Numbered from the stretch's first letter, positions 11,152 to 54,495 are shown. The stretch: 64,000 nucleotides of DNA from Eledone cirrhosa (GCA_964016885.1 OZ024740.1:191766001-191830000), one strand, 5' to 3'. Translations and numbers: made by a program. Notes: a model not told the origin generated them from the sequence alone.

Positions 11152-13397
11152 TTGATAAAAGGAAAATAATTGTTTCCAGCGAAAAATAGTTTAATTAGGA
11201 ATAAATAAAAATTAGTAATAGTATTGGTTAATATTCAGTTCTGGTTTTAAGTTTTACAGGTTGCGCATTTCTAATGCTTTTCAAAAATTATTTTGAGATA
11301 GAGCGCCCGTGATGTTTGCTCTAATCTGATTAGTTTTGGAAATTCTACATGTTTTATGTAAAAAAAAGTGGCTCCAGATGTATGAAAGAATTCTTGTGGC
11401 AAAAACAATATTTGATTTGTCGGTAGAGGTCATGTGAATGTTAAAAATTGATTTTGCGCCAAATGTAGGTTTGTCTCGACTGATTGAGAAGTCACTGAAA
11501 AATAAGTCTTTCAAGACAAATATGTGTGTGTGTGTAATAGTAGTACAGAATTTCTTTGTTTCGATAATGGTTAGCAGGGCTGTGTGTTCGAACCGCAGCC
11601 TGTTGACAGTTCAAATGCCTATTAAGACAAGTGTGTGTGTGTGTGTGTGTGTGTGTGCGTGTGTGTGTGTGTGTGTGTGTGTGTGTGTGTGTGTGTGTGT
11701 GTGTGTGTAGCAGAGTAATTCGTGGTAGAGGGATGGACAGTAGGAATGTGTCTGTACGTGTGTGGGGGATATTTTAACATGTTAAAATATATTTTTCAGC
11801 TCTTGTGTTATACGGAAAAGTGTGTGTGTGTGTGTGTGTGTATGTCTCTGTGTATGTTAATGTACGCGTGTGTATGTGTGTGTGTATATATGAGTGTGTG
11901 TGTGTGTGTTTATATGTGTCTGTGTGTGTGTGTGAGAATGTGTGTGTGTGTGGGTGGACCAGTATTTTTGTGAAACTGGTAAAAATGGTGTACATTATTC
12001 GATATTTTCAGTAAAAACGATTCTCTCAATAGAAGACAACGTTTTATAGTAAAACACAATTTCCTCAAAGAAGGACAACGTTTTATAGTAAAACACAATT
12101 TCGCATGCGCATCAGAAAATATAATATATGTATTATCTTGCTCAGGTTGTCGAGAACAATACATAGGCCAGACTAAAAGCAGCCTCCGCCAACGCATGAA
12201 TGTCCATAGATCCCAAATTAAAATACGGGAATACAGGAAAATACCACTGAGTGAACACATTGATACCTGTGCCGCTCAAAATCATCCCAACTTCAAAATC
12301 TTTCCCCTCTACAAATTTAAAATAAGGCCACCCATACCAGGCGCATCAGCAAGGAATCTCACTTTATTAATAAATACGAACCCCGTCTAAACACTTCTCC
12401 CTAAGATGAACCCACAACATACACACGTCAACATACATACCTACATCAGCATACATCTCTATCCACATATAAACACAATGACATACGTAAACACACATGT
12501 TCTATGGTGCAACACAAATATACACAAATTTGCATACTTTTTGATGTCTATAGATATAAACGTGTCGACACACACATACATATACGAACACATGCATTGC
12601 ACACTGATGGACACATACATATTTGTACACAAGTATTCCAATAGGGCAAGGCCTAATGCGTTCCCCTTGCAGTACGTACAATCTGGACACTCACACACAC
12701 CTTGGTATTATGCCAATACTATATATCATTTCAAACATTTTATTATTAAGGTTTTTGATGTCCTATTGAGAGAATCGTTTTTACTGAAAATATCGAATAA
12801 TATACACCATTTTTACCAGTATCACAAAAATACTGGTCCACCCACATACATACACACATTCTTTCACATACACACACACATATATACACACACACGCATA
12901 CACACGCACACACACACACACACACTTGTCTTAATAGGCATTTGAACTGTCAAGAGGCTGCGGTTTGCATACACATCCCTGCTGACCATTATCACAACGA
13001 CGAACCTCTTTACTACTACTACTACACACACACACACACATATTTGTCTTGAAAGACTTATTTTACAGTGACTTCTCAATCAGCCGAGACAAACCTACAT
13101 TTGGCGCAAAATCAATTTTTAACATTCACATGACCTCTACCGACAAATCAAAATTGTTTTGACCACAAGAATGTTTTCATACCTCTGAACCACTTTTTTT
13201 TACATAAAACAGGTAGAATTTCCCAAACTAATCAGATTAGAGCAAACATCACGGCCGCTCTATTATAAATGCGCAATTGGTAAAACTTAAAACCAAAACT
13301 GAATATTAACCAATACTATTACTAATTTTTACTTATTCCTAATTAAGCTATTTTTCACTGGGAACAATTTGTCAGCATTTTCTTTTCCTTTTACCAA
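11152..13397. mobile_element. PLE fold-back: 5'-truncated + strand element (12040-13397) preceded by an inverted copy of its 3' region (11152-12036)
   Basis: 11152-12036 is the reverse complement of 12760-13397 (diverged). A third copy lies at 19330-19700. Confidence 0.8.
12088..12390 (+). pseudogene. PLE GIY-YIG fragment (Cys-rich, Neptune-like)
   Basis: HNFACASENIIYVLSCSGCREQYIGQTKSSLRQRMNVHRSQI..PLSEHI. Confidence 0.85.
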
Positions 13398-13499
13398 CAT
13401 TTAACTCGTGTGTTACACCTCTATTCTTTTAAATATATATATATATATATATATATATATATATATAGAGAGAGAGAGAGAGAGAGAGAGAGAGAGAGT

Positions 13500-14955
13500 C
13501 AGGGGAGATGGCGTTGTACAAATAAATATACTTACACAGAGACACACACACACATGCGTTGTTTAGGGAGCGATGATATGTGTTGGTGATGCTGATAATT
13601 TTGAAATAGGGATATATGCCTGGTGGTGGTGGTGGTGTATGCGATAACATATTTACAGGATCGAATTTTACGATGGATTACACGTTTAAAAAAGACATAT
13701 GGATCACGCGGAAAATAAGGGTATGTATGAGGGATGGTGGACGTATAGCGATGTGTATAGTGGTGGAGGTGGAGATGGCGTTGTACGAATAAATACTATG
13801 ACACACAAACATACACACACATGCGTTGTTTAGGGAGGGATTATATGTGTTGATGGTGTTGATGATGTTTGAAGCATGGAGATGTGCCTGGTGGTGGCGG
13901 TGGTGGTGTGTGCGATAAAATATTTACAGGATCGAATATTACGATGAATTACAGAGCGAAGTGTATGGTGGTGGTGGTGGTGGTGGCGATAGGCTGATAT
14001 GTTCGACATTATATTTACAGGATCAGATGTTACGATGGTTTACAAGTTAAACCCTGACAACTAGATCACATCGGTACTGAGAACAGGGATGTATGGCGAT
14101 ATGTCTGTTGGTGGAAGTGATGGATGCGACATGATATTTACAAAATCTGAACTTACAAAGAGTTACATGTTACATAAGACAAATGCACTGAGATGAGGTA
14201 CGGTGAGGCAACGCAAAGGTGGTTATCACTATGTTGAGTCATGGTTAGTGTGTCACCCTCGGCCGAATGTTTGTGCAGAGAAGGTGTCAACCTTGTGTGT
14301 CTACAATTTATAATTATGTCTGACCTAGAGTTTATGGCAGATTTTAATTTAATGATCTCAGCCGCCTCGGCTACGCATAACCTGCAGTGGTTTCTGTCAG
14401 TTGGGAGTTGGGCCACGCGTCTTTTGACTGACCATATGATCTGTAATTCGATGTTCTTCTCTTTGAGGTCCCAGATCAAGTCGGCCAGTCTTGTTTGGGA
14501 TCGTTTGAGCCTGTGTTTAAAGGAGCTTTTTGTGGTTATACCAGCGCTCCTTAAAAGTAGTCGAAATCGCACCTATATAGTAGTACACTTTACTGACAGC
14601 TGTGACATCGCACCGGTAAATACTATTCTTAACAAGGCACTCCCCGTTTAGTGGGCATTCTACCCACTTTTTAAAGTTGCAGTTGGGGTTACAGGTTGGA
14701 TGGCACGTTGTCGGTTGTTCGTATTCTGTGTGGAGCTGGCATGTGGGTTGTTGTGATGTTTAGTGTGTATGGTTTCCCTCTACTTGGTGCTAGTGGTTTG
14801 TTGTGGAGATACCATGTGTTTGCATATTTTTGTCCTATTAGTGTGTGCTATCTTGTCGCCTAGATTTGGTGCTGTGGAGAAAGAGAATTTGATAGTGTGT
14901 CTATTGAAGAGCTTGTGGTAAGTATGTGTGGATGGGAAGGATTGTTCCAGAGGCT
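13500..14955 (-). mobile_element. 5'-truncated PLE with frameshifted linker and GIY-YIG (14153-14955) and a repetitive 3' UTR
   Basis: FPSTHTYHKLFNRHTIKFSFSTAPNL; CNFKKWVECPLNGECLVKNSIY..YIGAISTTFKERWYNH; then frameshift to LIWDLK..CRLCVAE..INSRSDIIINCRH. The motif ATATTTACAGGATC recurs in 13650-14140. Confidence 0.85.
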
Positions 14956-15085
14956 CTGAAGAAAATTCCAGGTATATTGGTAGCAACGTGTCTACTTCGG
15001 AATTTGAGCTAATCAGTGGCGAAACGCGCGTCAGCAACCAATAAATGTAATGAGGAGTAAACAATCGTCCTTGTTATCTTTACAC
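14953..15085 (+). ncRNA. Inverted terminal-repeat piece with an HHR 3' half
   Basis: GAAA-CGCGCG-TC-AGC at 15021-15035 (palindromic stem III, GUC), followed by AATAAA. GCT-CTGAAGA at 14953-14962 could supply the 5' half, but stem II does not close cleanly. Confidence 0.45.
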
Positions 15086-52675: not shown

Positions 52676-52802
52676 CCCAGACGGACGTCTCGTTTCATTA
52701 TAGGATTCCTACAATTTGGGTTAAATTATACCAATTTATGTAGGAGCTTGTATACCATCAATAGATATATATTCAATTGGGCTCCTATAATTCATCAGTG
52801 GG
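52676..52802 (-). ncRNA. Type I hammerhead with a large structured stem II insertion
   Basis: CCCA-CTGATGA-ATTATAGGA...(contains TCCTACA/TGTAGGA hairpin)...TCCTATAAT-GAAA-CG-AGACGTC-CG-TC-TGGG. Confidence 0.8.
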
Positions 52803-53408
52803 TGCCCCAATAATACTAATATTGATAATCTAACCAACATCAGTATTTAGCGATAATCATCATCTGTACCTGAGGTATATGTCAGGTTGCCAGTCCAGCA
52901 GTTCTAAAGAAATGCTCAAACTGAATCAAAAATGAGGAAGTAAATTACCGCCAAAAAAACAATACATGCGCATGACAATGAACTCTAAAAGGAATTCAGG
53001 CCACGTACTTAGAACTCAATTGGAAATTGAAACAATATCTATGTGTGTACAGTATTTGATGACACACACATATTATCTCGGGCAGAAAAGAAAAATATAT
53101 ATATATATATATATATGTATATATACATATATATATATATATATACATATATATATATGCATATTTATATATATACATATATATATATATATATATATAT
53201 ATATATATATATATATATATATATATATATATATATATATATAGTATTAGGACACTATTTATGGGTATGTATATAATAAAACCTTTTATAGTTATACATA
53301 TTTTAAACCCTAAACAGTGAAATACAGTAATTTATTACTACCTTATTACCAGTAAGATAAATAGCTCAATGTAATAACATCAGTTGTTCTACAGAGCAGT
53401 TATATACG

Positions 53409-54495
53409 AATTACATGAATCAAAGTTCGGTTCAAATCATTTATTCGCTTACAATTGTTTCTTCCAAACCGAGGTTTGGAGTTTTCGGACCAATTTTTCA
53501 ATGATTGTTTACATACATAACCTCCTTCTCAACACAAGACACATAGAGAAACATATGTATATATTGATGCACAGTGGGTTGACATCCGTATAATATTTAA
53601 GCATGGCAGTTTACATTCAAAGATTAAAGTCATATTAAAAGAAAATTACAACAAAATTAAAGTTATAATCCCACATTGGCAGTTTACGAAGAAGATGCAG
53701 GAGGATAGTTAGAAGAAGTTAGTTACACGTGGGTCATGCACGTGTGTCCTAGTTATATAAGATTATAGTGCTGTAAGTTGTTATATGGAATATAAGCAAT
53801 TTAAGCGGGCAATCAAGAGTATTATGGGGGTTGTATAGTATTTTATATGTATGATATAGAAGCTTGTGTGCAGAGAAATATTTAAGAATCAGACCCAATT
53901 CTGCAAGCATCCAATATTGAATTATCGAAGATTATGTGAATCTATATATTACGTTTCAAGGATTGTGAAAATGGTGGGTTATACGAAAAACCATAACACT
54001 GTTTTGCTTCTCATTCTTAAATATTTCTTAGCACACAAGCTTCTATATAATACATATAAAATACTATACAACCCCCATAATACTCTTGATTGCACGCTTA
54101 AAGTGTTTATATTCCATATAACACCTTACCGCACTATAATATTATATAAATGGGACACACGTGCATGCCCCACGTGTAACTAACTTCTTCTAACTATCCT
54201 CCTGCATCTTCTTCGTAAACTGCCAATGTTGTATTATAACTTTAATTTTGTTGTAATTTTCTTTTAATATGACTTTAATCTTTGAATGTAAACTGCCATG
54301 CTTAAATATTATAATAGATGTCAACCCACTGTGCATCAATATATACATATGTTTCTCTATGTCTCTTGTGTTGAAAAAAGGAGGTCATGTATGTAAACAA
54401 TCACTGAAAAATTGGTCCGAAGACTCCAAACCTCGGTTTGGAAGAAACAATTGTAAGCGAATAATGATTTGAACAGAACTTTGATTCATGTAATT
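53409..54495. repeat. ~485-bp-arm inverted repeat with degenerate HHRs (53445-53493 -, 54412-54460 +)
   Basis: Arms 53409-53892 and 54008-54495. CCGAAGA-CTCCAAACC-TC-GGTTTGGAA-GAAA-CAATTG-TA-AGCG (U4 to C, weak stem I). Confidence 0.85.

Follow-up and report, generated by a model that had tools for sequence, protein, structure and literature searches.

Head-to-head polarity of Penelope-like and hammerhead-repeat insertions in Eledone cirrhosa and its probable basis in paired cDNAs

Fold-back structures formed by Penelope-like elements (PLEs) and by short repeats with candidate hammerhead ribozymes were analyzed in a 64,000-nucleotide stretch of Eledone cirrhosa DNA, referred to here as the window (GCA_964016885.1 OZ024740.1:191766001-191830000; C1:191766001-191830000), and in sampled loci of the 3.0-Gb source genome. 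All of the approximately 85 two-armed insertions whose sense can be read are head-to-head with their 3' ends outward, and none is a contiguous tail-to-tail arrangement. Two outer ends recur in these composites, a proximal one (terminus A) and a distal one located 61-165 nt farther out (terminus B), and 42 of 46 composites have one arm of each kind. The readable fold-backs are probably insertions of PLEs or hammerhead RNAs in which two complementary DNAs (cDNAs) were started at a single cut, on both of its strands, and linked by their 5' ends, a reading to which a probability of about 0.7 is assigned.

Orientation of the two-armed insertions

The composites in the window consist of the following parts, with positions counted from its first letter.

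11153-12032, minus: inverted 5'-truncated arm of a PLE 3' region, reverse complement of 12763-13397; terminus A adjoins (TA)n at 11136-11152
12033-13432, plus: 5'-truncated PLE arm with the end of a GIY-YIG open reading frame (ORF) and the 3' region; Pfam GIY-YIG 24.1 bits in ORF 11983-12387 (plus)
15391-15599, minus: full-length 212-nt non-coding unit and tail, aligned with the single copy at 46467-46678, termini taken from 20 genome loci; terminus B adjoins a TA run at 15381-15391
15603-15740 (right end approximate), plus: second arm of the 212-nt unit, ending at terminus A and followed by (CA)n(TA)n at 15745-15871
21949-23256, minus: array of about 2.5 copies of a 536-nt unit; (TA)n at 21845-21952
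23255-23305, plus: short inverted arm of the 536-nt unit (query positions 116-166; C1:191789255-191789305), adjoining (TA)n at 23298-23345
25544-25853, minus: inverted arm of a 420-nt hammerhead unit, its outer end 55 nt from (TA)9 at 25471-25490
25855-26049, no strand: central (TA)n tract of the 420-nt composite, about 200 bp, from sequence reading
26064-27186, plus: about 2.6 tandem copies of the 420-nt unit, running into (TA)n at 27187-27459
36556-37867, minus: arm from the 3' region of a 6.16-kb PLE-like element; terminus A adjoins (TA)n at 36463-36558
38050-39495, plus: second arm (38050-39361) and a 134-nt tail (39362-39495, terminus B), adjoining (AT)n at 39496-39614
50027-50476, minus: arm of a 468-nt hammerhead unit (unit positions 450 to 1); terminus A adjoins (TA)n at 49899-50028
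50478-51464, plus: 2.1 tandem copies of the 468-nt unit, ending in a TA run at terminus B (position 51 of the next unit)
53244-53893, minus: arm from the 3' region of a PLE-like element of about 4.2 kb (53409-53893) and a 165-nt tail (53244-53408); terminus B adjoins (TA)n at 53095-53243
53904-54495, plus: longer arm of the ~4.2-kb PLE-like element; terminus A adjoins (TA)n at 54496-54579

The initial annotation listed nine fold-backs in the window and read every one as a minus-strand left arm followed by a plus-strand right arm. Self-BLAST of the window and direct sequence reading establish inversion in eight of the nine and, through ORFs, hammerheads or fixed termini, the claimed polarity in six. 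The polarity is not borne out in these three:

14153-15085, no strand: one-orientation fragment of a dispersed repeat, no inverted repeat
31205-31305, no strand: constant-size hairpin of unreadable sense, listed as 31208-31302
41246-41413, no strand: constant-size hairpin of an old family (75-82% identity), sense unreadable, listed as 41271-41381

The first of these was not a fold-back, giving no inverted match even at word size 7 and an E value of 10; most of its 40 scored genome copies match positions 1-842 at 84-91% identity. The two hairpins are inverted but bear nothing on the rule. Several other coordinates shifted because the tails had been missed, for example 53409 to 53244 and 39361 to 39495. 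The array at 21949-23256 with its short arm, forming a composite at 21949-23305, was absent from the earlier list.

The sense of each composite was read from its own features or from its relatives. The first composite, listed as 11152-13397, extends from 11153 to 13432 and has (TA)n at both ends; its right arm outruns the left by about 45-63 nt, the tail that leads through terminus B into (TA)n at 13433-13467. For 15388-15745 the sense follows from a decayed hammerhead and from termini that are fixed in 20 genome copies. The array at 21949-23256 is read from its outer terminus, which is constant, and from a minus-strand motif that weakly resembles a hammerhead; self-BLAST also places a palindrome at 23135-23305. 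Candidate hammerheads with one core mismatch each start at 26518 and 26938 (plus) in the right array of the 420-nt composite. The arms of 36556-39495 are 96% alike and take their sense from an 830-aa ORF in full-length tandem copies of the element; the tail at 39362-39495 is the continuation of the element as seen in tandem copy L041. The arms in 50027-50927 are 100% alike with a 1-nt spacer, the right arm carries on as a tandem array to 51464, and hammerhead motifs are located at 50255-50292 (minus), 50662-50699 (plus) and 51130-51167 (plus). For 53904-54495, the strand of the arm is also that of the ORFs in tandem copy L042.

The genome was searched with one unit per repeat family and the loci were then fetched; the best 40 candidates per query were scored, and the family counts are therefore samples. 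The 468-nt unit was evaluated at 21 loci including the window. BLAST finds a minus block followed by a plus block in 16, three apparently single-armed loci carry, by eye, an inverted arm of only 12-17 nt that ends in the regular terminus, two have no inverted arm, and none is tail-to-tail. The 212-nt unit has an inverted arm in 17 of 20 fetched loci, on the same side throughout, and the window copy is the eighteenth. Queries of 597 nt (from the ~4.2-kb element) and 772 nt (from the 6.16-kb element) each returned eight minus-then-plus pairs and no opposite pair. The 25 composites of the 536-nt unit, one of them in the window at 21949-23305, have a single arrangement with a constant outer terminus and none is opposite. 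A 464-kb sample, made up of 264 kb around the window and 100 kb from each of two other chromosomes, was scanned with a hammerhead descriptor and no pre-selected family. It contains seven sure (two of them the window's own) and two probable head-to-head composites and no tail-to-tail composite. The approximately 85 sense-readable insertions are the sum of six repeat families and this sample, and their tally of 85 to 0 upholds the orientation rule of the initial annotation. Counting these other genome copies, head-to-head polarity exceeds chance. A tail-to-tail pair across a microsatellite does occur, between 20658-21029 and the array at 21949-23256 with (TC)n(TA)n between them, and it is the arrangement expected from separate insertions into one tract. 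Sense was independent of any insertion model where candidate hammerheads were present (468- and 420-type units) and where ORFs with YRDD and GIY-YIG-like motifs lie on the strand of the right arm.

Termini, junctions and the RNAs copied

Outer ends are fixed in position. The pairing of A with B was counted in 16 of 17 composites of the 468-nt unit, 15 of 17 of the 212-nt unit, 7 of 8 from the 597-nt query, 3 of 3 from the 772-nt query and the single composite at 11153-13432. The tail, the interval from A to B, measures 61 nt in the 212-nt unit, 69 nt in the 468-nt unit, 134 nt in the 6.16-kb element and 165 nt in the ~4.2-kb element. The outer ends of the 468-nt family fall at only two unit positions, A at 445-450 and B at position 51 of the next unit. 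Sensitive BLAST places the inverted arms of the 212-nt family between positions 3 and 151, ending at the fixed internal terminus A, and the main copy ends at B 61 nt farther on in 15 of 17. This one-tail rule was absent from the initial annotation. Which arm carries the tail was also considered as a correlate of arm length, and the 597-nt family shows no link. The outer ends are also fixed in context: 33 of 39 evaluable ends of the 468-nt family lie within 15 nt of a (TA)≥5 run, compared with 9-15% of all positions, and such runs make up 5-8% of the sampled DNA.

Inner junctions, in contrast to the termini, vary from locus to locus. Asymmetry marks 13 of the 16 scored in the 468-nt family; the arms overlap by 0-9 nt or are separated by a short filler, and the junctions cluster near unit positions 1, 50, 80, 111, 150 and 331. 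The hammerhead cleavage site (unit 215|216) was rejected as the junction point; a single junction, at 207, lies nearby. Partner arms found with the 597-nt query keep their 3' end and are cut at 111, 245, 275, 289, 361 and 373. The two arms of a locus differ by 0.00-0.2% in most loci, compared with about 0.65% between loci. Unit positions 11-39 of the 468-nt unit (window 50488-50516) form a 29-nt palindrome of their own near the junction of the two most symmetric composites, those of the window and of locus L012, and this palindrome might help two like-stranded cDNAs to pair.

The copied elements include coding and ORF-less types. A Pfam search of 80 window ORFs and the long ORFs detected GIY-YIG as the only PLE domain and no reverse transcriptase (RT); ORFs 11983-12387 (24.1 bits) and 35027-35482 (25.6 bits) exceed the GIY-YIG cut-off of 22.6 bits. 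The 830-aa ORF of the 6.16-kb element has, by eye, a YRDD box and a GIY-YIG-like C terminus, and it matches the two window GIY-YIG ORFs weakly by BLASTP (E of 7e-4 and 4e-3). A PDB sequence search with it returned no meaningful relative. The ORF of the ~4.2-kb element is a broken homologue of the 830-aa ORF, and the long ORFs of both elements are on the right-arm strand. The nearest named homologue of the large retroelement ORF is from a cephalopod, and homologues carry PF26215 and PF28514. Tandem copies at spacings of 6.16 kb and about 4.2 kb repeat the same terminal segment and correspond to partial tandems of the pseudo-long terminal repeat (pLTR) type, and the 468-, 420- and 536-nt units likewise occur in tandem arrays.

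The longest stop-free stretch in a trimer is 65 aa for the 468-nt unit and 61 aa for the 420-nt unit, so both are ORF-less. The hammerhead descriptor returned 5 matches in the window and 43 in the 464-kb sample, compared with 0-1 in shuffled sequence in each case. No Rfam family reached its gathering score in the window; the HH9 model scored 37.7 bits (E of 6e-6) against a gathering score of 52. In E-value mode, hammerhead matches were confined to 50027-51395 and one weak match at 47532-47606, and over the genome HH9 gave one match among 58 scored candidates of about 177,000. As judged from these motifs, the repeats carry the hammerhead known from PLEs, and the 468- and 420-nt units have the predicted make-up of retrozymes, namely ORF-less tandem units with a type I hammerhead. 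At least half of the sampled 31-mers of the 468-nt unit (50478-50945) occur in sequencing runs under at least eight organism labels, and the family may be common to related species. No run recorded as RNA was among those listed for the unit.

Two cDNAs from one cut and the alternatives

The study by Craig et al. (2021; PMC8557442), which credits the layout of the PLE insertion unit to Evgen'ev & Arkhipova (2005) and Arkhipova (2006), describes PLE insertions as 5'-truncated partial tandems (pLTR), often with an adjacent inverted 5'-truncated copy, a one-sided tail of 30-40 bp and, in some clades, a (TA)n bias, and terms the transposition cycle and mechanism undefined. This is the premise from which the initial annotation proceeded, and it is in print. 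Units of endonuclease-positive (EN+) PLEs as described there share with the E. cirrhosa insertions the 5' truncation, the partial tandems, the inverted copy adjoining the 5' end, the tail at one end, the (TA)n insertion bias and a hammerhead in the repeat. They differ in that tails here are 61-165 nt long, in that the rule is counted here (polarity of about 85 to 0, exactly one tail in 42 of 46), and in that ORF-less units make up most composites here. The polarity rule is borne out and restates this known architecture, and the model of the initial annotation, well supported as it is, was largely anticipated in the literature.

Purified PAc, a Poseidon protein of the green anole, cleaves AT-rich DNA and extends both strands in vitro, and its reverse transcription begins at two neighbouring internal sites separated by the length of the genomic tail (Frangieh et al. 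2024, PMC11167929). AT-rich cleavage, two-strand extension and two adjacent start sites are all points of likeness to the insertions described here. The systems differ in that both start sites are used on both strands in vitro, whereas the genomic events here show one of each. The main text of that paper does not derive inverted copies from two-strand priming, and a search of mostly open-access literature found no paper stating a two-strand model for PLE inverted copies.

In the mechanism proposed here, the endonuclease would cut both strands of a (TA)n tract and each 3'-OH would prime reverse transcription at one of two fixed template start sites. Both cDNAs would stop at random points or at preferred ones, which are possible RNA 5' ends, and their ends would be joined through microhomology or short fillers. 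Arrays would come from multimeric or circular templates. Two cDNAs from one cut are expected to leave fixed outer termini next to TA repeats, variable and asymmetric junctions, terminus-only arms and variants shared between the arms, which is the combination observed; the two-cDNA claim of the initial annotation thus fits its footprint. The 468-, 420-, 212- and 536-nt units match the ORF-bearing families in this footprint, as the initial annotation held, which supports mobilization of the non-coding hammerhead arrays by PLE machinery; the non-coding hammerhead RNA likely borrows a PLE enzyme. A more specific version is put forward tentatively, at somewhat short of even odds: the two cDNAs would start at two fixed sites 61-165 nt apart, one per target strand and perhaps on a single RNA, which would account for both the one-sided tail and the inverted repeats, and retrozyme arrays would be laid down by the same reaction.

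Several observations weigh against the two-cDNA reading. The mechanism is inferred from footprints alone. The sense of the 212- and 536-nt units comes mainly from taking the constant end as the 3' end, together with decayed hammerhead-like motifs, and is partly circular, and 16 of the 212-nt loci were picked because a partner match was already listed. Three of the 16 junctions of the 468-nt family are symmetric (the window's own with its 1-nt spacer, L012 and L020), which two independent stops do not predict. The (TA)n tract at 25855-26049 is ill-fitting with a simple one-event junction, and 25544-27186, with this central tract and a left end outside (TA)n, could be two separate insertions. 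Locus C18 of the 14153-15085 family, whose sense is unreadable, consists of a plus copy followed directly by a short minus piece. The 830-aa ORF has neither a Pfam RT domain nor a Pfam GIY-YIG match. Start sites are equal on both strands in vitro, so the one-tail rule does not follow from PMC11167929.

The symmetric junctions would be the natural product of a snap-back, in which a single target-primed cDNA folds at its 3' end, copies itself and leaves a hairpin that is resolved to a palindrome. The same head-to-head polarity would be expected, and the window's perfect palindrome and one 536-nt locus with matching inner ends (217/217) are of the appropriate form. Symmetric centres should then be found everywhere, however, and 13 of 16 are asymmetric. 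A self-copied arm can neither exceed its template nor end at a fixed position, whereas 42 of 46 composites have a second arm with A or B as its end, and terminus-only arms of 12-17 nt are unexplained. Snap-back is disfavoured as the main route and improbable as a general account; at most it covers the three symmetric junctions.

Chance and later rearrangement are less probable still. If two insertions had entered one (TA)n tract independently and at different times, facing apart by chance, all four orientation pairs should occur rather than 0 contiguous tail-to-tail cases in about 85, and A-plus-B pairing in 42 of 46 would not result. The arms moreover abut or overlap by 0-9 nt with no target between them and have variants in common within a locus. 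(TA)n is a strong target at which neighbours are expected, the pair across (TC)n(TA)n at 20658-21029 and 21949-23256 is a clear case in the window, and the (TA)n in the centre of 25544-27186 may be taken the same way; as the source of the composites in general, this route is nevertheless very unlikely. Perfect palindromes such as 50027-50927 (100% alike, 1-nt spacer) are typical products of DNA rearrangement after insertion, by template switching at a fork or palindrome formation at a break, and also of chimeric long reads and assembly fold-backs. These processes are blind to polarity and termini and predict neither the lack of tail-to-tail composites nor fixed termini nor TA flanks. Arm divergence (85-96% identity in the window) marks many composites as old and real, and the centres are mostly asymmetric. 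Rearrangement or artefact is the most improbable of these accounts.

The hairpins at 31205-31305 and 41246-41413, and perhaps 10929-11057 and 49072-49792, are a separate question. The chances are evenly divided on whether these are DNA transposons resembling miniature inverted-repeat transposable elements (MITEs) or other hairpins unrelated to PLEs. More than 1100 candidate copies of the 31205-31305 family and more than 2200 of the 41246-41413 family were found, those scored match nearly the whole query on both strands, and scans and reading detected no convincing hammerhead in either hairpin. Two run-off cDNAs of a short RNA with fixed starts would also yield hairpins that do not vary in size, which the 212-nt family comes close to.

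Other inverted repeats were observed in the window. At 49072-49792, 272-nt arms 98% alike enclose a 177-nt spacer; this fold-back lacks a hammerhead and a direct (TA)n flank. The hairpin at 10929-11057 (130 nt, 89%), absent from the earlier list, adjoins (TA)n at its left end. An outer inverted repeat (40952-41034 and 41480-41558) encloses (AT)n(AG)n and the hairpin at 41246-41413, and the microsatellite is therefore inside the repeat and not outside it. Inverted copies at 47510-47933 and 51462-51751 are 3.5 kb apart and 88% alike, and the left copy has a minus-strand hammerhead at 47562-47589. They look like an older head-to-head pair whose centre was later hit by insertions including the 468-nt composite.

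The remaining features include tandem repeats at 23339-25545 (about 695 bp x 3, 87-89%) and 28708-29459 (172 bp x 4.4, 97%), in which a hammerhead was not found. Three lone motifs, at 18485-18521 (plus), 32260-32303 (minus) and 34277-34332 (minus), resemble hammerheads and have good helices, with no inverted partner close by. ORF 9979-10341 (plus), near the first PLE composite, encodes a Pif1 helicase 2B domain (Pfam, 52.9 bits) and is probably a Helitron-type fragment. At several unrelated loci (window 15304-15380, L014:~1540-1600, block B2 after 52930 and block B1 after 214582), a recurrent motif of about 75 nt, ..CCCCGACGGC..CTCAAG.CGTTTCGACGGCTA.TTCTGG.., separates (TA)n from hammerhead arrays; it could be the end of a PLE or a further small passenger element.

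Relation to retrozymes and L1, and wider meaning

Animal non-LTR (non-long terminal repeat) retrozymes are described as ORF-less tandem units of a few hundred nucleotides with a type I hammerhead, and it has been proposed that they derive from PLEs and are non-autonomous (Cervera & de la Pena 2020, PMC7229834; Li, Clavereau & Pollet 2026, 10.64898/2026.07.22.740005). The ORF-less tandem hammerhead units found here are of a similar kind. A term search of both papers found no mention of inverted arms, orientation or a head-to-head layout, so the two-armed, one-tail footprint in (TA)n is an added structural argument.

Priming from the second target strand has a counterpart in L1 retrotransposons. 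In twin priming, as Ostertag and Kazazian are said to have described it in 2001, the second target strand also primes reverse transcription and an inverted 5' part results. The inverted and direct parts of such an L1 insertion are different, non-overlapping stretches of one RNA. The arms in E. cirrhosa differ in this respect, in that both copy the same 3' region.

The polarity rule itself is not new. What is new here is its count, the rule of one proximal and one distal start per event (42 of 46) and the occurrence of the same footprint in ORF-less hammerhead arrays. The E. cirrhosa genome provides an extensive natural collection of young two-armed insertions whose arms reach 100% identity, and in it polarity, start sites and the one-tail rule can be counted. 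The counts predict that the in vitro system would use one start site per strand in each event. They add structure to sequence similarity as grounds for regarding non-coding hammerhead arrays as PLE passengers, and they caution that fold-backs in TA-rich invertebrate genomes should be neither annotated as DNA transposons nor discarded as assembly errors. If true, the reading with two start sites and two primed strands would explain the enigmatic one-sided tail of PLEs together with their inverted repeats.

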